Positions 34,432 through 46,412 of a stretch of 64,000 nt of DNA are shown one piece after another; within the stretch, counting starts at the first letter, position 1, and the number at the start of each line of letters is the position of its first letter. Made by a program: the position numbers and the translations under genes. A model generated the notes under the pieces. The model was not told where the DNA came from. It did not search any database and saw nothing but the letters and a program-made list of their open reading frames with translations. The stretch lies in contig JAHLVW010000103.1 of the NCBI GenBank assembly GCA_019058275.1, positions 1 through 64,000 of the forward strand, given 5' to 3'. Origin of the DNA: Candidatus Heimdallarchaeota archaeon. GTDB lineage: Archaea > Asgardarchaeota > Heimdallarchaeia > JABLTI01.

Positions 34432-34585
34432 TCATATTCACCTAGCTAATAGTCTGTGTTAGGTAGGTAAATAAAGTTTATTTACAATGGGATAAATATT
34501 TTAATCCGTAGAAGTATAGTAATTCATTACAATTTAAATACTTAGAACTGCAAATTACATCATTAATAGGAATAGGGATTAAGAA

Positions 34586-35602
34586 ATGACAAAAGACTAT
34601 TGGATATTATTAGCTTCATTAAAGGATACTGGTTTTGATATTCACATTTCCGAGCAATTACCATTTGATAATATCCTTCCGCAAATCAATTATCTTGGTA
34701 TATTCGCTAGTAATTCAATTAATGATGTTACAGGACCTGTTACATTTTATAATCTGCTTGAATATCAATGTCTAATGTTCTCATTTGAAATAAAGGATAT
34801 GGCAGTAACTGATCCTCGAATGGTAAAGAACAATTACCTTGTGACTGCTTTTGTTCTCATCTTGTTTAAAAATACCCAAAAACACCAGCAGTATTTTGCT
34901 AACATGCGTTTACTGTTATTAGATAAAGTTACTCTCTGGAGACAGAATTACTCTAGGATAAGGGAAATTCAAGAGTCTGATTTCGAGAAATTGACTAATA
35001 TTCTTACAAATTTAGAAAGCATAGATAGCAAATTAAATACAGAGACTCCAAGTATTGAATATAACAAACTATTCTTTATTGATCAGCTTAATAACTTTAG
35101 TTCAATTATAGATAAACACTACTCGGTACTTTTTGTAATCAATTCAGAAAAATATTTTGAAGAAATAAGTAATATCTTCATTAATTTTGGTCAACATATT
35201 TTCCCAAAGATGGAAAAAAACTTTGATTCATTTAATGTTACAACAATAGATAATCTAGAAGTTAAATTGGTTGCTACAAATAGTCTGAAGAAAATGAAAA
35301 ATAAATCTGTAATGCTCTTATTAGATACTGATACTGAATTTGAATCATATATTCAAAATATTGATAAGCTTGAACTAGAAGATAGGGAAAATTGTTTAGT
35401 CTATCTTTATTCAGAAAAAGGTGAAAAGAATCTTGTTAAAAAATACTTTAACACTATCTATAAAATCAAAACTTGCAATGTGGGTTTTGTAGAAGAGGTA
35501 GATGATTCTTCATGGCTACAACAACTTATTCAATTCATGTATCGAGTTGTGTTCAAATTTAGATACTATGACAAAGAACAGGCTTTAAAATTTAACATGT
35601 AA
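34586..35602 (+). CDS. Hypothetical protein: N-terminal uDENN/longin-like domain, C-terminal alpha/beta domain resembling a degenerate G domain
   Basis: GPV...LMFSFEIKD...DPR...FVLILF strand pattern. The C-terminal part has GTPase-like strand/helix alternation but no P-loop. Confidence 0.45.
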   Translation: MTKDYWILLASLKDTGFDIHISEQLPFDNILPQINYLGIFASNSINDVTGPVTFYNLLEYQCLMFSFEIKDMAVTDPRMVKNNYLVTAFVLILFKNTQKHQQYFANMRLLLLDKVTLWRQNYSRIREIQESDFEKLTNILTNLESIDSKLNTETPSIEYNKLFFIDQLNNFSSIIDKHYSVLFVINSEKYFEEISNIFINFGQHIFPKMEKNFDSFNVTTIDNLEVKLVATNSLKKMKNKSVMLLLDTDTEFESYIQNIDKLELEDRENCLVYLYSEKGEKNLVKKYFNTIYKIKTCNVGFVEEVDDSSWLQQLIQFMYRVVFKFRYYDKEQALKFNM

Positions 35603-35763
35603 AACTACCCAATCAATACAATGATGCTCAAATTTTACTTATTTTCTTAAGATTTTTTTTGTCGAATGTTTTTTGCCTCAATAATACTTTTAAAAAACCC
35701 ACGTTTCGTATATTATATTATCTTATCATTAAAAGTGATTTATCAAACAAGAGAGGATTCCGT

Positions 35764-36315
35764 TTGAAAACTGAAGCTATATGTATAACTACAATGGGAA
35801 AGGAACATGTTGAACTAGTCGATGTCTTTCCAAAAGAATGTTTGACAAACGAACAAAAAGAGTTCATTCAAAAAAACAGCCTTCCCATTGGTGCAAATAA
35901 AGGTGATTACTTCACCATTGAAATGGATAATCATGGCAATGTGCTCTTTAGCTATGTTTTTGTAATTCCATCATTGGAAGAAAATGAACGAAATATTATC
36001 GCTTCTCTTACATCTATTGTAAGAGAGCATGAAAAGATTCTAGTGGACAAAATTCACGAAGAAAGTGAAATTCACAAAGAATTTGTTCGAAAGAGCTTTT
36101 CGTACATAATTGATGAATTACAAAAATTAGGCATCTTATCTTTACCAACAATTATCGAAATAATCCCAGCCATTCTAGACGGATTAATGAGTGGTAATTT
36201 CAAAATTGAGGTAAATGGTAGAAGAGTAATTGAATTCAGTTTTGGCATCAGAAAATCAGCAGTTGAAGATGATGATGAAATTACCAGAAAAACCATGATG
36301 AGTGAACTATATTAA
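35764..36315 (+). CDS. uDENN/longin-like protein (probable TTG start at 35764)
   Basis: ELVDVFP...IQKNSLPIG...YFTI...FSYVF...R...SLTSIV follows the uDENN pattern. GAGG lies upstream of the TTG. Confidence 0.55.
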   Translation: MKTEAICITTMGKEHVELVDVFPKECLTNEQKEFIQKNSLPIGANKGDYFTIEMDNHGNVLFSYVFVIPSLEENERNIIASLTSIVREHEKILVDKIHEESEIHKEFVRKSFSYIIDELQKLGILSLPTIIEIIPAILDGLMSGNFKIEVNGRRVIEFSFGIRKSAVEDDDEITRKTMMSELY

Positions 36316-36328
36316 AGGAGCTTAAGAA

Positions 36329-36862
36329 GTGTCATTCCTGTTAAAACTATTTATGAATAGAACAAAAAATGTAGCAGTAACTTTTTGTGGGCTTGATAAG
36401 GCTGGTAAAACAACTATGGTTGATTATTTGAAAACTGGTCAATTCAATGAGAACATACATGCTACATTGGGCATGAATAAGGAAATAATTGATGTTCCAG
36501 GATTAACTTTTAACGTAATGGATCTTGGAGGTCAAGAAGATTTCAGATGTATTTGGCATGAAGCCAATGAAAAAACAGATGTTTTAATCTATATTGTTGA
36601 TGCATCTGATTTTACTCGCTTTACTGAAACGAAAGAGATCTTTCATCAAATTGTAAGTACACAAATTAAAGATGATGTCGTCATAATGGTTCTCCTAAAT
36701 AAAGCAGACATTACTCCAAGAATTAATGGAGGTGCAGATTTCATCACAGCATTTGGTTTGAATAAGTTATCCAATACTTGGACACTATTTACAACATCAT
36801 CACGAACAGGTCAAGGTATCTATGAAACTTTTACTTGGCTTAGTAATCGATTTAAAGGATAA
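36329..36862 (+). CDS. Arf/Sar-family small GTPase
   Basis: G1 GLDKAGKT, G2 ATLG, G3 DLGGQ, R-x-x-W, G4 NKAD and G5 TSS. N-terminal amphipathic MSFLLKLF. Confidence 0.93.
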   Translation: MSFLLKLFMNRTKNVAVTFCGLDKAGKTTMVDYLKTGQFNENIHATLGMNKEIIDVPGLTFNVMDLGGQEDFRCIWHEANEKTDVLIYIVDASDFTRFTETKEIFHQIVSTQIKDDVVIMVLLNKADITPRINGGADFITAFGLNKLSNTWTLFTTSSRTGQGIYETFTWLSNRFKG

Positions 36863-36880
36863 AACTCAGGAGAAAGAAAA

Positions 36881-37861
36881 ATGCTTTCTGCAGTACAAAT
36901 ACTGTTCTTGATGATCAGTAGTATTACTTTTGTTTCTTTGTCATTCTTAGTTATTATGTTGTTTAGAAAATATCTAGAGAAGAAAACAATAGGAACTCTG
37001 CTGCTTTTATTTGCGTATTTTGACAGTTTAATGGCTGATGTTTTAATTGATATTAGTGTTTGGTTACAAATTTTTATACAGACTGAAACTGTTGAATTTG
37101 CTTCAACTATCTTAATGCATTTATCAACAATCTTTCTAATCCATGTCATTGCATTTATGTACTTCTTTGGTAATCGTGTCGCACTTCTAAAAGACAGTGA
37201 TATTACTAAAGTAATCTATACAACATTATTCCTTGGTCTTTGGGGAGCTTATGCAGCACTTGGTTTACAAGAGATTATACAAAAAGTTGCTTCACCAGTC
37301 TTTTATATTAAATTTCCAGTAGAAGGAACAAGTGTTTTCTTCATATTCCCAACAATTAATAGATGGCTATCAATAATTCCCATTTTATTTATGCTTATTG
37401 GAGTATTAACTTATTTCAGAATTTTCTTTAGGTGTCTAAGTCTTGCACGAAAAGCAAGAAATAGAACTGAACAAAGGATAAACACCTACAATTATTTATC
37501 TGTTATATTTTACATGCTTACTGGTGTAACTTTAGCACTTTATTATGTTTCAACAAATATCTATATAATGACTACTGTTTTTGCTATGCGTGGTATTTCA
37601 ATTGTTTTAGCATCTATCTATGGTTATCTAGGATGGATTCAACCCGAATTTATCAAAAAAGTTCTTAGAGACAAAACTCACATTGCACTTTATTTCGAAG
37701 GAAAAGTTGAGAGACCAAAAACTCCTCCAACCTTTTTCTCTACTCCTGAATCCAGAGAAAAGGAACAATCAAATCCACAGCATTTTGATAAAATTGTACC
37801 ACCAACAGAAACACCTACAGCAACATCTTTTCAACCACAAGAAGTTATGCCAGAAGAATAA
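36881..37861 (+). CDS. Seven-transmembrane protein with S/T/P-rich C-terminal tail
   Basis: Seven hydrophobic segments by eye, a basic loop between TM5 and TM6, and a ~70-aa polar tail. Starts 18 nt after the GTPase, with AGGAG upstream. Confidence 0.7.
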   Translation: MLSAVQILFLMISSITFVSLSFLVIMLFRKYLEKKTIGTLLLLFAYFDSLMADVLIDISVWLQIFIQTETVEFASTILMHLSTIFLIHVIAFMYFFGNRVALLKDSDITKVIYTTLFLGLWGAYAALGLQEIIQKVASPVFYIKFPVEGTSVFFIFPTINRWLSIIPILFMLIGVLTYFRIFFRCLSLARKARNRTEQRINTYNYLSVIFYMLTGVTLALYYVSTNIYIMTTVFAMRGISIVLASIYGYLGWIQPEFIKKVLRDKTHIALYFEGKVERPKTPPTFFSTPESREKEQSNPQHFDKIVPPTETPTATSFQPQEVMPEE

Positions 37862-38380
37862 GTTGTACCACCAATACCAGAAAAAGATGATGACGATTGG
37901 AGTTTTGAATAATATAAAACTCCTCGCCTTTTTATTTTAGAATATTTTCATTTAATATCTTATGACAGAGATGTATTTTTTTCCCTTTCAAATTTGATAG
38001 TCTTACGTATCTTGGCACGTTGAGATCTTTGAATAACCAAGTAAACGTACAAAACTAATGGCCATAAGAAAAAAAGTCTAAATGTAAAATCTAATGAACT
38101 AAATAGTTTTTTAACATTCAATCTTCTAACCTCAATAATATCTTCGAAAAAAATTATTTAAGAATCACTATAGAGGCAAATTCATAGTAAATAATGATTT
38201 TCATAAAAAAACAAAGAAATAAACTCATTGCTACTTGTTCTTCTTCATCCTAACAAGACCACATTCAGAACATTTAAATTTTGTTTGCTTGTGAAAACCA
38301 CCTTTCCTTTTAATGGGGTTCATGTGCATTCTGAAATTTTTTGTACGGCAACGAGTGCATTCCAAGACAAATCTATCCTT

Positions 38381-40868: not shown

Positions 40869-43800
40869 ATGGGGAAAGTTGTTGGTTTATTCATGCTTAT
40901 AAGAAGAAGTTATCTATTAAAAACAAAGTTAATTTTTGCGATAATTACTTTAGGTGTCTTGGCGAATGACTCTTTTAGATTTTTTCAAAACACTTCTGCT
41001 CATTCTTCTATAGCTTATCCGACAGAAATTTTCTCTATATGGAATGGGACAAATCCTACAATAAATGGTAGTATTCATTTTACTTTTCAAGGAGTTGCTG
41101 ATGAATGGGTTTATGCAGCAGTTTATGATATGTATGATAGCTCAAATGCAATGGGCGGGAAGCTGCTTTTGCAAAATGATAATGCTAGTCTTTATGTTGC
41201 AATTGATGCAACTAATTTTCAAGTTTTGACTCCTATTGCAGAATGGGGAACAACAATTTATTTTGATATAGATCACAATGGAGTTTTATCATCTACTGAT
41301 AAGTCAATACGTTTTATCTCCAATAGTACTGATGACTATGTAGAGTACAGACAATATAATGAGCTTTTAAGTAGATGGAATGTTATTGAATGGAGAAATC
41401 CTGGTATGACTCTACCAGTTACTGGTATTTATTTTGATACTGCCTTTACAACTTCTGCTTTTGATAACATTACTAATCATAGACAATACGAGATAAAAAT
41501 TCCTTTCACAGCTATATCTAGTGGACCAGGGAATAGTAGTGGGATTGCTTTCGAAGCTACAGATGATTATTCAGATCAATACGCAGCAATAACTTGGCCA
41601 TATATTGCAGATAATTTACTTGAAATCAGAACCAATGCTAATGAATGGGGAGATGTCTCTTTTGGAGAATCCAGCAAAGATGATTTTGATTATGTTGTAG
41701 AACAAAATATGAATGTCAAATCATCTGCTTTAGGATATAACAATGGGACCTATATAACATCAGGTGATATTGATGGAAATGGTGATCAAGAAATTATTGT
41801 GAGTTCGAATAGAACTGTATTAGGTGACGATAATTTACTAGCTATCTTTGACTATAATGGGGCAGAGTTCCAGCGAATTTGGTCATCATGGACTACGAGC
41901 CATCAATCCATAATTACTTTTCCAATTAAAGGGATTAAGACTTATGATTTTGATGGGGATGGGAAGAATGAAATTTATGCTGTAGGTGAGTCTACAAGGA
42001 TACTACGTTTTAGTGAATGGAATAGTACATCGAATGATTTTGACACAAGTGAAATAATCTTTACTCATAGTTATTCATTAATGGGTTATCTAACAATTGG
42101 AGATGGAAATAATGATTCTCTTGCTGATCTTGTTTTTGGAGATCAAAATGGTTATGTCAGTGTATTAGAATATAATTCACTCTCTGATAGTTTCTCTCAT
42201 GATTTTCGATCGCCGTTTAGATTTAGGATAAATTTAGTATACCCATATAGAATTCATGTATTAACAGTTGGAGATATTGATAATGATATGCAAAATGAAA
42301 TTCTGTTTAATTATCAAGTAACAGCTGATGATCAAATCTCATCAACACAACTCCTAATTTATGAACGATCTGTAGCTAAATACTTGGATAATCCAGCAGA
42401 TGATTTGCCTGCAGGTTCATCCACTACAACAGCTGATCAATTTGGTCATATAATTTTAGTTGCCGATGTAGACAATGATTTAGACATGGAAACAATCATG
42501 GTAGGCAAAGATTATCTAAAAATCTTTGAACAATATTCATTTTCAGATCCCACCCCACCACTACAAATTTCACTAAATGATGGTTTATCTAAGCCATCAA
42601 TGAGTGGTGGAGCTGCTCTTGCAGATCTTGATGATGATGGAATAAATGAACTAATTTTTGGAGCAAATAATGGTACATTATATATTGGACATGTCACTGA
42701 TTTGGGTTCATCTCTTAGTTTTAGTTTAAACTGGTCTGGTGATTTTGGTAGTAGTCTAGGTTTCCATGGTGCTATTACAACAGGGGATTTTGATGGAGAT
42801 GGTAGAACTGAATTCATTGTTGGAGATAATTATGGGCAAATATTGGTTTTTGGTAAAGGGGAAGCTCCTCAAATTTCAATTACAAGTCCTAGTTCAGGTT
42901 ATGTCTCATCTCGAGATAATGTTTTAGTTACTTGGTCAGCATCTGATGATTTACAAACAGTACATCATTTTGATGTATATGTTGATGGTGGTTTTACTAA
43001 TAGAGTTGGAGGAGGTCAAACTAGTATCGTTGCTTATCTTACTCCAGGACAGAATATAATTGAAGTAATTGCTTTTGATTTCTCAGGTTTAAGTAAAAAC
43101 ACTAGTGTTATTGTCAAATTTGATGTTGATGCTCCACAGGTGACAATTACTAGCCCAGAGAATTACTTCATGACCGATCTAGGTTCAGTTCAGATTACTT
43201 TTGATATTAACGATCCTGATAATGATTTTGATACTTATGAAATCTATAGAAATAGTACCTTATTGAAAAACTCTAGTATAATTGAACCTTATGATGTAGT
43301 TCTACCAAGTGATGGTATATGGAACATTACAGTAATTGCTGTTGATGTTACTTTGTTGAAAGGTAGAGAGAGTGTCTTCGTAATAAAAGATACAACTCCA
43401 CCTTCAATATCAATAACCTCCCCTCTGGATGGAAGTGCTTTCAAAAATACTGAGTTAGATATCATTTGGTCTGCTTCAGATGAGTTAACAGATATTGATT
43501 ACTATGAGGTGTATGTAGATGGTGGATATATTGATACTACCACTTTAAAGACATATACTGTTTTACTTGCTGTTGATAAAGACTTTACAATAGCTGTTAG
43601 AGCTTATGATTTATTAGGTAATTTCCAATCTGATACGATTACTGTAACTCGAGATAGAGTTGATCCATTAATTGAAATTGATCCTTTAGCTTTACCAACA
43701 CTTGCTGATGGTACATTCTATACAGATAATCCATTTCTTTCCTTAACTTGGAATGCTACTGACAATCTTTTAGGTTCTGGTATTAGCCATACACAAATTA

Positions 43801-46412
43801 TCATTAATGGACTTCTATATGATACTTACACTCCTTCAACTACTACTGATATTGTTGATTTAGGAGATGATAGTTTCAAAGATATCTTCGTAAGAACATA
43901 TGATGAAGCAGGGAACTTTGAAGAGGATTATGTAGCAGTTATTCTCGATAGAACAAATCCTGAGCTTTCAATTAATAATCCGGTAAATAATTTCACAACA
44001 GGTCTTGATTATGTTATTATCTCTTGGTATGCACATGATGCTGGTGTTGGAATAAAAGAGCAAGTTGTTTTAGTTGATGGTGTAGTTGAAAATATCATAA
44101 CAGATCCAACTATAAGATTCTATCAAATCTCAATACCTGATACAAAAACTTACTTGATAATTATAAGAATAATAGATATCTTAGATCACTTTATTGAACA
44201 ATCAATTAATGTTACTCATGATCCAAATGCTCCAACAATTATGATAATAAATCCTTCTAGTGTGACAGACTATTCCAATACAATGACTGTAGATTTAACA
44301 TGGAATATAATTAATATGGATGTCAGTGTTTTTGAAATATATATCAATGGTACGTATTACGATAATTATACAAGTGGAACTATTAATGCTGTTGTTAATT
44401 TACCTGTAAATCCTTATGAATATCCACTCTTTAATCTGACAATTATCGCAATTACTACAGATATGAAAGTCTATCAAGATTATAGATGGATAATTGTAGA
44501 CCAAACTGATCCTGTAGTTTCTATTATCGATCCACTAGATGATGATATCATAACATTATCAAGCTTGCAAATTGAATGGTTCAGTTATGATGACGGTTCT
44601 GGATTAGAAAGATTGGAAATCCATATTGATGATTTAGTTTTGCTAAAAGATGAAGCTTCAATATCCCATGTATTGGATATTACTGGTTATGATGGAACAT
44701 ATGATTTACTGGTATATGCTTTTGATATTGCTGGAAATAATGCTTTTGATATTGTAACTATTGAAATCTCTCTCTTACCACCTGATTTTACAACCTCTTT
44801 AGAACCATTAACCATTTGTAATGACCTTAATATGCAATTTAATCTTTCAATCTATAATCCTAGATTGGGTGTGAAAACAGTTACTGTTATTGCTGATAGT
44901 GTAAATGATGTTTATTCAGTAGATTATGCGCTAGATTATGTAACATCTCCTATTTGGATATTGATAAATGTCACACAAAGTGATTTTCTAGATGGATTAG
45001 TAAATCATAATTTAACAATAAACGTGTATGATAGAGCAAATAGAGCGAGTAAAGAGGTTTACGATATAATTTTGGATGAAGTATATCCAGTATTTTGGCA
45101 AAATCCAGTTATTGATAACAGCATTTTAAGTAATACTCTCTTTGAAATAACTCTTGATGAAGAAGGTAATAACTACCATAATATTACAATTTATATTAAA
45201 GAAGAATATGGTCTTAGCAATGTAACATTAACAATTACAGGTTTAAATTATAGCGAAACATTTTGTATGATTTGTGTAGGTGAAAGAGCTACAAGTCCTC
45301 TCTATCAATATACTATTCAATTGAATTTTGATAATTTTGAGACAGGTGATTATCAATTAGTTTTCAATTTCACAGATGTAGCTGGTAATAGTAATTCAGC
45401 AATTTATAATATGCGAATAAATGAAGAAATAATTCTTGATACCGGAAATCCACTAATCTACGTGATTATAGGTGTTGTATTAACCGTAATAGTAGCTATT
45501 GTACTTGCTATTTCTCTACGTAAACCAATTTCAAATATTGGCTGGCGAGATGAATTGGTTGTTGTATCATATATTTTGAACTCAGGTCTTACAACAATAT
45601 TTGTACCTTACTCGCCTGAGATAATTACGGATGAACAGCTATTTGGCGGGGCGTTGACTGGAATAAGAGGTATTCTCGAGGAAATAATTGGAACTAAATC
45701 TGAGTTTGAAGTTGAAGTGTTTGAATTTGGTGAAAAGCACTTATTGATTTATTCAGGTTTATTTGGTGATTGTATATTAATAGTTAAGAAACTAAAACCA
45801 ATTCATGTAAGAACACTTAGTTTCTTTGCTGACGATTTTGAAAAACAATATTCTGAGGTATTGGATGATGATACTCACGTGACTCAAGAAGAATACAAAG
45901 GATCAGAAGAATTAGTTGAAAAATACTTTGGTAAAAGATTTAATCTTGAAACAATTGCATTTAGATTGTCAAGAGCTGAACGAGAAAAATTACATAGGAA
46001 ACTACAAGAAGATGAAATGATTGATCAAGATACAGTAATAAGCTCATTTTATGGTGAAATCATTACAAAGTATGAGAAATTTGATGAATTGCCTAGTAAG
46101 ACGAAAAACTTTGTAGGGGATGCAATAATTCTTGCTGAACAAGCACTTACAGAATTAATCTCATACGAATTTAAACACGCAAAAAGAAGTGCTAAAGCAT
46201 CATTAGAGAGTCTTGAAAAAGCAAGAAAAACAAAAGAACCTTTAGACAAGTATTTACAAATTCTGGATACAATTCCAAAAATCGTTGAAAAGGTTCTAGA
46301 AGGAGCATATCACGGAAAAAGAGGAAGAATAGAAGAACTCCATAAAGCTATTGAAGTTGCTTCGCAATTGTTCTTAAGTCAAATCACAAGTCTATCTGAA
46401 TTAGATAGATAG
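40869..46412 (+). CDS. Large surface receptor: DOMON/CBM9-like domain, FG-GAP propeller, ~9 Ig-like domains, TM, cytoplasmic longin-like and helical domains
   Basis: Seven D-x-D/N-x-D-x-x-x-E/D repeats, repeated P-x-I-x-I-x-x-P Ig starts, one TM near 45450-45520, and DEQLFGGALTGI in the tail. Confidence 0.8.
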   Translation: MGKVVGLFMLIRRSYLLKTKLIFAIITLGVLANDSFRFFQNTSAHSSIAYPTEIFSIWNGTNPTINGSIHFTFQGVADEWVYAAVYDMYDSSNAMGGKLLLQNDNASLYVAIDATNFQVLTPIAEWGTTIYFDIDHNGVLSSTDKSIRFISNSTDDYVEYRQYNELLSRWNVIEWRNPGMTLPVTGIYFDTAFTTSAFDNITNHRQYEIKIPFTAISSGPGNSSGIAFEATDDYSDQYAAITWPYIADNLLEIRTNANEWGDVSFGESSKDDFDYVVEQNMNVKSSALGYNNGTYITSGDIDGNGDQEIIVSSNRTVLGDDNLLAIFDYNGAEFQRIWSSWTTSHQSIITFPIKGIKTYDFDGDGKNEIYAVGESTRILRFSEWNSTSNDFDTSEIIFTHSYSLMGYLTIGDGNNDSLADLVFGDQNGYVSVLEYNSLSDSFSHDFRSPFRFRINLVYPYRIHVLTVGDIDNDMQNEILFNYQVTADDQISSTQLLIYERSVAKYLDNPADDLPAGSSTTTADQFGHIILVADVDNDLDMETIMVGKDYLKIFEQYSFSDPTPPLQISLNDGLSKPSMSGGAALADLDDDGINELIFGANNGTLYIGHVTDLGSSLSFSLNWSGDFGSSLGFHGAITTGDFDGDGRTEFIVGDNYGQILVFGKGEAPQISITSPSSGYVSSRDNVLVTWSASDDLQTVHHFDVYVDGGFTNRVGGGQTSIVAYLTPGQNIIEVIAFDFSGLSKNTSVIVKFDVDAPQVTITSPENYFMTDLGSVQITFDINDPDNDFDTYEIYRNSTLLKNSSIIEPYDVVLPSDGIWNITVIAVDVTLLKGRESVFVIKDTTPPSISITSPLDGSAFKNTELDIIWSASDELTDIDYYEVYVDGGYIDTTTLKTYTVLLAVDKDFTIAVRAYDLLGNFQSDTITVTRDRVDPLIEIDPLALPTLADGTFYTDNPFLSLTWNATDNLLGSGISHTQIIINGLLYDTYTPSTTTDIVDLGDDSFKDIFVRTYDEAGNFEEDYVAVILDRTNPELSINNPVNNFTTGLDYVIISWYAHDAGVGIKEQVVLVDGVVENIITDPTIRFYQISIPDTKTYLIIIRIIDILDHFIEQSINVTHDPNAPTIMIINPSSVTDYSNTMTVDLTWNIINMDVSVFEIYINGTYYDNYTSGTINAVVNLPVNPYEYPLFNLTIIAITTDMKVYQDYRWIIVDQTDPVVSIIDPLDDDIITLSSLQIEWFSYDDGSGLERLEIHIDDLVLLKDEASISHVLDITGYDGTYDLLVYAFDIAGNNAFDIVTIEISLLPPDFTTSLEPLTICNDLNMQFNLSIYNPRLGVKTVTVIADSVNDVYSVDYALDYVTSPIWILINVTQSDFLDGLVNHNLTINVYDRANRASKEVYDIILDEVYPVFWQNPVIDNSILSNTLFEITLDEEGNNYHNITIYIKEEYGLSNVTLTITGLNYSETFCMICVGERATSPLYQYTIQLNFDNFETGDYQLVFNFTDVAGNSNSAIYNMRINEEIILDTGNPLIYVIIGVVLTVIVAIVLAISLRKPISNIGWRDELVVVSYILNSGLTTIFVPYSPEIITDEQLFGGALTGIRGILEEIIGTKSEFEVEVFEFGEKHLLIYSGLFGDCILIVKKLKPIHVRTLSFFADDFEKQYSEVLDDDTHVTQEEYKGSEELVEKYFGKRFNLETIAFRLSRAEREKLHRKLQEDEMIDQDTVISSFYGEIITKYEKFDELPSKTKNFVGDAIILAEQALTELISYEFKHAKRSAKASLESLEKARKTKEPLDKYLQILDTIPKIVEKVLEGAYHGKRGRIEELHKAIEVASQLFLSQITSLSELDR

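Follow-up and report, generated by a model that had tools for sequence, protein, structure and literature searches.

A conserved longin, Arf-family GTPase and seven-helix protein gene cassette in Heimdall-type Asgard archaea

Membrane budding in eukaryotes begins with the action of Arf GTPases, and close relatives of these proteins occur in Asgard archaea. We analyzed a stretch of 64,000 nucleotides (the window, G+C content about 30%) that forms part of contig C98; the genome, that of a Heimdall-type Asgard archaeon found in sediment, measures 4.1 Mb and is 93% complete. At positions 34586-37861 the open reading frame (ORF) listing contains four co-oriented genes on the + strand, named here genes 1 to 4, among which an Arf-family GTPase gene is immediately followed by a gene for a protein with seven hydrophobic helices. 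A preliminary description of the locus had proposed a four-gene operon in which a membrane receptor is wired directly to the GTPase and to two DENN/longin-like regulators, as an analogue or precursor of signalling by G-protein-coupled receptors (GPCRs). The locus raises the question of whether these genes form a functional unit and, if so, which protein is the constant partner of the seven-helix protein. As described below, genes 2-4 were found as a conserved cassette in which that partner is a longin, and we lean somewhat towards the reading that they are a conserved operon encoding a membrane-bound small-GTPase switch module.

Gene order, conservation and transcription signals

Gene 2 (P0010; 35764-36315, + strand, 183 amino acids) encodes a predicted stand-alone longin similar to NPRL2/Npr2, gene 3 (P0003; 36329-36862, + strand, 177 amino acids) an Arf-family small GTPase, and gene 4 (P0004; 36881-37861, + strand, 326 amino acids) a predicted seven-transmembrane (7TM) protein of an orphan family. 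The co-orientation of the four genes and the gaps of 13 nt between genes 2 and 3 (36316-36328) and 18 nt between genes 3 and 4 (36863-36880) agree exactly with the preliminary description, and a GAGG-type ribosome site lies ahead of each of genes 2, 3 and 4. The sequence AGGAG lies 8-9 nt upstream of both the GTG start of gene 3 at 36329 and the ATG start of gene 4 at 36881. The mechanical ORF of gene 2 (35659-36315, + strand) begins at 35659; we corrected its start to the TTG at 35764, because all the gene 2 homologues start with M-K-P-x-S-L-C-L and this sequence aligns with that codon. A GAGAGG sequence (35751-35756) can be observed 8 nt upstream of the corrected start.

The synteny census comprised 38 loci, of which 35 are in the genomes of relatives and two on metagenome contigs, the remaining one being that of the window. 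The word-index searches for homologues provided 2-4 close relatives each for genes 1, 2 and 4, and the wider families were collected by whole-genome HMM searches and one exhaustive profile search. The 7TM gene is located directly behind a longin-family gene in all 37 loci with upstream DNA available; an Arf gene lies between the two in 29 loci and is absent from the other nine. In the 29 loci with all three genes, the longin, Arf and 7TM genes are separated by 0-30 nt or overlap. The loci belong to two families of the class, the 7TM proteins are only 22-30% identical, and the surroundings of the cassette differ from locus to locus. Chance adjacency is excluded, since the gene order is conserved in the 38 loci; a gene order not shared by relatives, which the preliminary description had named as grounds for abandoning the proposal, was thus not what we found. 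Given the common strand, the short gaps and an order kept across distant relatives, genes 2-4 probably form one conserved operon.

In the tree of the 7TM proteins, the cassettes lacking Arf fall into two or three clades nested among those containing it, and Arf has therefore been lost at least twice. The longin and the 7TM protein are the constant pair, and Arf is the dispensable member. This speaks against the proposed direct wiring of a receptor to the GTPase, because the Arf-less cassettes retain the longin as the partner of the 7TM protein. The identities of the three proteins, compared pair by pair, give correlated matrices (Spearman 0.53-0.74, with none of 2000 permutations as high), and Arf has a median identity of 53%, the longin of 44% and the 7TM protein of 25%, which indicates that the cassettes were duplicated and diverged as blocks, with the 7TM protein evolving fastest. 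The window copy of the 7TM protein lies on a long branch with its nearest relative, from locus L001, and deviates from the family consensus at several conserved positions. The source genome has one more cassette (G000:C55:151895-153208; L050:2487-3839), which lacks Arf and contains an intact longin and a 7TM frame with two in-frame TAA codons; it may be a decaying copy. In a further locus, counted among the 29 with Arf, an in-frame stop interrupts the Arf gene (L046:4029-4457) and the longin and 7TM genes are intact, and this locus could be an intermediate toward an Arf-less cassette.

The preliminary description of a single four-gene operon holds for genes 2-4 as a conserved unit, but not for gene 1 (P0001; 34586-35602, + strand, 338 amino acids), a candidate second GTPase regulator that is set 161 nt apart from gene 2 once the start of the latter is corrected. 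Direct reading of this spacer (35603-35763, + strand) revealed, besides the ribosome site of gene 2, two oligo-T tracts (35653-35660 and 35669-35674), which are candidate archaeal terminators for gene 1, and two TATA-like boxes (35688-35697 and 35709-35719), which may serve as promoter elements. Because the gap holds both types of element, gene 1 probably has its own transcript, and a layout of one plus three genes appears more suitable than one four-gene operon. A terminator-like hairpin followed by a T-run, found by a consensus scan downstream of gene 4 (37899-37933, + strand), likely ends the three-gene transcript. A scan for sigma-70 promoters gave fewer matches than shuffled sequences and was set aside, as such a consensus does not apply in archaea.

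Three sediment-metagenome assemblies contain the entire 3.6-kb stretch without interruption, two of them differing from the window by 10-11 single-nucleotide polymorphisms (SNPs), and an assembly chimera can therefore be ruled out. A 5-bp indel at 35709 in the assembly of one strain is located within the AT-rich spacer and fits non-coding DNA. Between the strains, which come from different sediment samples, 10 of the 12 SNPs inside the four genes (34574-37604) are non-synonymous; two of these replace Leu by Pro in gene 1. Past its TAA codon, which is identical in all three assemblies, the frame of gene 4 remains open for 16 further codons (37859-37912), ends in the acidic sequence Asp-Asp-Asp-Asp-Trp-Ser-Phe-Glu and overlaps the terminator-like hairpin. 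A gene for a large surface protein (1847 amino acids), which has repeats of the FG-GAP and bacterial Ig-like types, is found 3 kb downstream of the cassette (40869-46412), and a giant gene is similarly placed after the cassette of the closest relative (L001:10115-14197).

The three proteins of the cassette

No match to the gene 2 protein was found in Pfam or NCBIfam, and the identification of its fold was based on an AlphaFold2 (AF2) model. The model, obtained with an alignment of 18 sequences, has a predicted local distance difference test (pLDDT) score of 81 and follows the order beta-beta-alpha-beta-beta-beta-alpha-alpha (strands at residues 2-11, 16-22, 49-53, 59-68 and 78-87, helices at 29-38, 94-121 and 127-143), after which a beta-hairpin and a disordered tail are predicted. 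This is the order of the longin-domain fold, and longins fill the lists of structural neighbours given by both Foldseek and VIA-align, a method that does not rely on Foldseek. In the Foldseek comparison with the Protein Data Bank (PDB), subunits of GATOR1/SEA are at the top (E 4e-6 to 5e-4), followed by a Lokiarchaeal longin domain, Lst4, DENND1 and FLCN-FNIP. With VIA-align, NPRL2 (8fw5_B) reaches Z 13.7 and yeast Npr2 (8adl_S) Z 12.6 over 155-157 aligned residues, and the other longins Z 7-10.6. According to the model, gene 2 is a stand-alone longin with a fold nearest to that of GATOR1 NPRL2/Npr2 and without a DENN domain; a search with the longin family profile (hmmsearch) against the PDB sequences gave nothing below E 0.3. 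The proposal of two DENN/longin regulators is thus sustained for the longin fold of gene 2, but this protein ends after the longin, the hairpin and the tail, and gene 1 has no match to DENN, uDENN or Folliculin in Pfam.

Residues E17, P23, P41, F66, R76 and F112 are invariant among the 35 members of the longin family. Arg76, present in 35 of 35, is located in the beta4-beta5 loop of the model, which we take to be the site of the arginine finger in longin GTPase-activating proteins (GAPs). The arginine fingers of such proteins are Arg78 in NPRL2, Arg164 in FLCN and Arg147 in SMCR8. VIA-align pairs residues 2-170 of the gene 2 model with residues 6-168 of NPRL2, as an alignment range and not a residue-level superposition.

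Gene 3 is clearly an Arf-family GTPase, as had been stated before. It matches Pfam Arf (PF00025) with 129.6 bits and E 1.1e-37 (cut-off 22.3), and its best solved relatives are the eukaryotic Arf1/3/6 (E 1e-28 to 1e-26); the Asgard ArfR structure 8OUN follows with E 4.5e-21, values that express similarity alone and not a placement in a tree. Its match to Pfam G-alpha is sub-threshold (41.9 bits against a cut-off of 48.8). The GLDxAGKT P-loop, the switch-I T46, D65-x-x-G-Q69 with the catalytic Gln69, NKxD and TS(A/S) are conserved in the 22 cassette Arfs compared, and so is the N-terminus M-S-F-L-x-x-L-F, in which M1, F3 and F8 are invariant. Gene 3 has no Gly2. Its N-terminal helix is predicted to be amphipathic and would have the right character for nucleotide-dependent membrane binding.

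The seven helices of gene 4 were recognized both by hydropathy, as previously described, and in the AF2 model (44 sequences, mean pLDDT 87.6), which shows seven transmembrane (TM) helices at residues 4-34, 37-65, 69-99, 107-133, 162-191, 195-220 and 227-253, a helix 8 at residues 256-263, a beta-hairpin in the TM4-TM5 loop (extracellular loop 2) and a disordered tail. The predicted inner loops contain at least 14 lysine or arginine residues and the outer loops three, which indicates an N-out/C-in orientation; the model thus has the GPCR topology of seven TM helices, N-out/C-in, with a helix 8. Gene 4 and its 43 relatives (44 members) gave no consistent Pfam match, and no GPCR, sensor or transporter family was found among them. 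An exhaustive profile search of 1.8 billion protein representatives yielded 62 family members. Among 400 genomes of the phylum, strong matches were limited to two families of the class to which the window belongs, f1 (8 of 11) and f3 (12 of 31); a single genome carried at most five copies. As judged from these searches, the family is an orphan one restricted to Heimdall-type Asgard archaea.

The invariant or near-invariant positions of the 7TM family (K34/T36/G38/T39/L42, Y94/F96/R99/L103/D105, R180 and Y249/G251/W252/P255) are all located in the cytoplasmic half, and the outer half is hypervariable and rich in indels. The conserved motifs are K-x-T-x-G-T in intracellular loop 1 (ICL1), Y-x-F-x-x-R...D at the end of TM3 and Y-L-G-W-I-x-P at TM7/helix 8. 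Many 7TM paralogues end in a Val-Glu-Val-Ser-acidic motif; in the longin family, the last residues of the disordered tail form a conserved acidic-Leu-Trp motif, with Trp in 94% of the 35 members and Tyr in the window copy. These C-terminal motifs may be short linear binding motifs for partners.

The structural neighbours of gene 4 depend on the set of structures searched. Foldseek against the PDB returned GPCRs only, with E 2e-3 or weaker, TM-scores of 0.34-0.48 and root-mean-square deviations (rmsd) of 7-10 Å. VIA-align against the PDB gave GPCRs at Z 13-14.6 and rmsd 4.1-5.0 Å, a range of Z that, by the tool's own statement, is also attained by unrelated helical bundles, and a microbial rhodopsin at Z 13.0. 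The GPCR neighbours among the solved structures belong to classes A, B2, C, F and T. In the ESM Atlas, the matches are the N-terminal 7TM modules of histidine kinases and of GGDEF/EAL proteins (PF16927 HisKA_7TM), as well as stand-alone Asgard 7TM proteins, with TM-scores by query of 0.59-0.64 and rmsd 2.9-3.8 Å; the TM-scores by target are 0.69 for a stand-alone HisKA_7TM cluster, 0.80 for a cluster of unannotated Asgard 7TM proteins and 0.30-0.49 for long multidomain proteins. By these model comparisons gene 4 is closer to predicted HisKA_7TM modules than to solved GPCRs, at the level of fold only. Membership in HisKA_7TM was rejected, as none of the 44 members matched PF16927 at E up to 1 and hhalign against the PF16927 domains of Heimdall proteins gave a probability of 0.7%. 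A fair description of the gene 4 model is that of an orphan, receptor-shaped 7TM protein, whose nearest shapes are prokaryotic sensor input modules and for which GPCR homology is unsupported. The preliminary description was correct in that the cluster contains no histidine kinase.

PF16927 had no match in the source genome or in the f1 and f3 relatives searched. Among the 21 relatives searched, true PF16927 HisKA_7TM kinases were found in family f6 only (4 of 4), and the cassette 7TM protein occurs in none of the 22 f6 genomes. The two types of protein may thus have a complementary distribution, as far as this small sample goes.

Gene 1 and its relatives

Gene 1 has no Pfam or NCBIfam domain, with no match to DENN, uDENN, Folliculin or C9orf72 at E up to 1, and eight of its relatives likewise gave no informative domain in Pfam. 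A comparison of language-model features placed it nearest to a Heimdall cluster (score 0.92) in which 23% of the members carry PF11704 Folliculin, followed by C9orf72, FLCN, SMCR8 and DENND11 clusters (0.78-0.86). This likeness to Folliculin, C9orf72 and SMCR8 clusters is a lead only. HMM searches with residues 1-150 detected relatives, most of them proteins of 330-390 amino acids, in 22 of 83 genomes of the class. In an alignment of nine family members G16, G50-P51, D76 and R78 are invariant, and some members have G-P at G16. As a sequence pattern only, this resembles the Gly-Pro motif and arginine of Asgard FLCN/SMCR8-type longins (PMC12290439).

PF11704 passes its cut-off in two other genes of the source genome and not in gene 1. 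These two genes (G000:C55:35307-36638 and G000:C69:75635-76771; L061, L062) encode FLCN/SMCR8-type longin proteins with a Phe-Asp-Asp-x-x-Gly-Pro motif and are unlinked to the cassette. Profile comparisons gave no demonstrable homology of gene 1 to the candidates tried. The hhalign probability was 0.5% between the gene 1 family and the PF11704-positive proteins of the genome, 0.24% between the gene 1 family and the cassette longin family, and 1.5% between the C-terminal half of gene 1 (residues 150-338), considered as a dead GTPase, and the Arf alignment; against the PDB sequences the family gave spurious coiled-coil matches only, with E above 0.1.

In five loci of other Heimdall-type genomes (L024:864-2520, L025:864-2523, L026:832-2517, L027:1-1317 and L031:852-1836) a gene 1 relative directly follows an Arf-family GTPase gene (Pfam Arf, 83-87 bits) in the same orientation. 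In L028 the gap between the gene 1 relative and Arf is larger, and in L029 the relative is upstream of an Arf/Rag-like GTPase gene. Since its relatives adjoin such genes, the gene 1 family has a genetic link of its own to Arf-like GTPases, and an Arf-like GTPase together with a gene 1 relative looks like a separate two-gene pairing. Gene 1 adjoins the cassette only in the window and in its closest relative, L001, and was therefore placed outside the conserved cassette; that it acts as a second regulator is plausible on the basis of its neighbours.

Proposed mechanism, alternatives and relation to known systems

In the reading of genes 2-4 as a membrane-bound switch module, the 7TM protein would be a membrane-embedded receptor or anchor, whose invariant cytoplasmic face (ICL1, the end of TM3 and the TM7/helix-8 motifs) would hold the NPRL2-like longin. 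The longin would regulate Arf, most likely as a GAP through Arg76, as in NPRL2, FLCN and SMCR8, and less likely as an exchange factor for guanine nucleotides (GEF) or a platform, and Arf-GTP would bind the membrane by its N-terminal amphipathic helix and recruit effectors. The GAP role is favoured because NPRL2 has the nearest fold, Arg76 is invariant and the intrinsic GTPase activity of Asgard Arfs is very low (PMC11914678). The cassettes would differ in the input to which they respond or in the membrane site that they mark, a diversification suggested by the fast evolution of the outer half of the 7TM protein and by the block duplication into several paralogous cassettes per genome. Gene 1 would add a second regulator candidate in this lineage. 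The analysis shows the identities and folds of the cassette genes, their conserved order, their joint divergence and the patterns of conservation; every physical contact, the GAP versus GEF activity and any sensing of a ligand are what we infer.

Several observations weigh against this reading. Known longin GAPs act as heterodimers, while the conserved cassette supplies one longin only. Arg76 remains invariant in the nine cassettes without Arf, and it could thus serve the contact between the longin and the 7TM protein and not catalysis. The 7TM protein has no sequence-level link to any sensor family, and the 10 non-synonymous changes among the 12 SNPs between strains also have to be listed here, although their numbers are too small to infer selection. 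Moreover, the longin family has M-G-x-x-G (G12...G15) followed by Leu or Val and no Gly-Pro motif before the second beta-strand; the Gly-Pro motif located just before this strand has been described as specific to GAP longins (PMC12290439). A complex prediction of the 7TM protein, Arf and the longin with GTP, in which the longin was the scored partner, gave 0.27 where the mark was 0.32, and counts neither way. In a stronger form, the 7TM protein would be a ligand- or stimulus-gated receptor that controls the nucleotide state of its dedicated Arf through the bound longin, the paralogues would be a block-duplicated receptor repertoire, and the system would be continuous with the eukaryotic logic of membrane sensor, longin GAP and small GTPase; we regard this form as unlikely.

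The observation that the longin and the 7TM protein are constant and Arf is dispensable in 9 of 38 cassettes also fits a constitutive platform without ligand sensing, in which the 7TM protein is an anchor or identity tag for the longin and Arf, and the paralogues mark membrane sites or cargo routes. We consider this a real, if rather doubtful, possibility. Profile searches revealed neither a ligand-binding domain nor a sensor-family signature in the 7TM protein, and its fold neighbours place the longin among domains that are generic GTPase platforms; the membrane-anchored SR-beta (of the Arf family) with the longin-like SRX of SR-alpha, and Ragulator holding the Rag GTPases, are known analogies. 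Neither seven helices nor an outer half far quicker to diverge than the cytoplasmic face would be needed in a plain anchor, however, and among predicted folds the input modules of signalling proteins are nearest. Tight genetic linkage alone would fit equally well with a 7TM protein that is itself the regulated object, such as a transporter, a channel or a cargo under the control of the longin and Arf in its activity, sorting or turnover, and eukaryotic Arf-family GTPases commonly sort membrane cargo. This alternative seems quite unlikely to us, as Pfam gives no sign of a transporter family, receptor or sensor 7TM bundles match best in fold, and the conservation is concentrated on the cytoplasmic face instead of at a central pore or substrate site.

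Strict coupling of the GPCR and G-protein type, with the 7TM protein itself as the exchange factor for Arf and the system as an analogue or precursor of 7TM/G-alpha signalling, would agree with the N-out/C-in topology and helix 8, with solved-structure neighbours that at the top are all GPCRs, with conserved motifs in the places occupied by DRY and NPxxY in GPCRs, on the cytoplasmic ends of TM3 and TM7, and with the sub-threshold G-alpha match of Arf. The loss of Arf at least twice from cassettes that keep the other two genes indicates, however, that the obligate partner of the 7TM protein is the longin. In addition, the TM-scores, all below 0.5, the rmsd and the Z values of the GPCR matches are at the level of unrelated helical bundles, close to the microbial rhodopsin, no GPCR family of Pfam was consistently matched, and the predicted prokaryotic 7TM sensor modules fit better. 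We therefore judge such coupling very unlikely, and the GPCR and G-alpha part of the preliminary description was not upheld. That the genes are no functional unit, and are neighbours by chance or by recent shared ancestry, draws on nothing more specific than the general caution that related genomes share gene order; it is extremely unlikely, as the order is kept among paralogues with 22-30% 7TM identity, in unrelated surroundings, in two families and at distances typical of translational coupling.

The switch-module reading can be compared with the eukaryotic longin GAPs GATOR1 (NPRL2-NPRL3, acting on RagA/B), FLCN-FNIP (RagC/D) and C9orf72-SMCR8 (Arf), with which gene 2 shares the predicted longin fold, nearest to that of NPRL2, and to whose arginine finger its loop arginine may correspond. 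C9orf72-SMCR8 is an Arf GAP (PMC12290439), and gene 2 is likewise genetically tied to an Arf-family GTPase. Unlike these proteins, gene 2 is a single longin of 183 amino acids with no DENN or C-terminal domain and no heterodimer partner in the conserved cassette, it lacks both the Gly-Pro motif and similarity at the sequence level, and it is linked to a 7TM protein; its GAP role is a proposed one. With the described Asgard Arfs (ArfR, bioRxiv 10.1101/2024.02.28.582541; AArf, PMC11914678; 8OUN), gene 3 shares the family and a Heimdall-type host, together with a predicted N-terminal amphipathic helix and the lack of Gly2. A text search of the ArfR and AArf papers found no mention of an operon, gene neighbourhood, synteny or transmembrane partners.

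Among prokaryotic systems, the actinobacterial conservons (PMC13621833, PMC13343842) consist of the sensor kinase-like membrane protein CvnA, the roadblock/MglB protein CvnB, CvnC and the Ras-like GTPase CvnD. They are also operons of a membrane sensor, a roadblock/longin regulator and a small GTPase, with multiple paralogues, and they have been likened to G-protein-coupled systems. The archaeal cassette differs by having an Arf instead of an MglA/Ras-like GTPase, a longin instead of a roadblock protein, a 7TM protein without a kinase domain, and no CvnC-like gene. Another conserved neighbourhood of a GTPase and its regulators is the Asgard operon of a LAMTOR1-like roadblock protein, a Rab-like GTPase and a DENN protein (bioRxiv 10.1101/2020.10.19.343400); in contrast to it, the cassette has an Arf and not a Rab-like GTPase, no DENN or LAMTOR1-like gene and a constant 7TM protein, and is restricted to two families of a single class. 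Fusions of NPRL2-like longins with two-component signalling domains have also been reported in Asgards (bioRxiv 10.1101/2020.10.19.343400). Finally, gene 4 has the seven-helix N-out/C-in bundle in common with HisKA_7TM modules and GPCRs, but it carries no fused output domain, and its partner genes encode a longin and an Arf and not a kinase or a heterotrimeric G protein.

A 2026 preprint lists 7TM and GPCR-like structural clusters in Asgards, and our literature searches found no description of a longin-Arf-7TM cassette. What is added here is the HisKA_7TM-like fold match that fails at the profile level, the constant longin-7TM pair with repeated loss of Arf, and the link between the gene 1 family and Arf-like GTPases. 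The small GTPase genes of the cultured Lokiarchaeon do not, as a rule, share operons with longin or roadblock genes, so that partners cannot be read from the layout (PMC10933270); the cassette is an exception to that layout and offers matched triplets of an Arf, an NPRL2-like longin and a membrane protein for a joint assay. The window offers a fourth candidate, from a family that lies beside Arf-like GTPases elsewhere. For Asgard Arfs, the native exchange factors, GAPs and effectors have been described as unknown and as having escaped structure-based searches (PMC11914678), and the GAP-like Asgard longins are without an assigned GTPase partner (PMC12290439). As the cassette names concrete candidate partners, the question of the native regulators of Asgard Arfs becomes directly testable. 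If the longin is indeed a GAP or GEF for Arf that is held by a 7TM sensor, the cassette would be an archaeal counterpart of the eukaryotic lysosomal nutrient-signalling logic, in which a membrane sensor, a longin and a small GTPase are combined.

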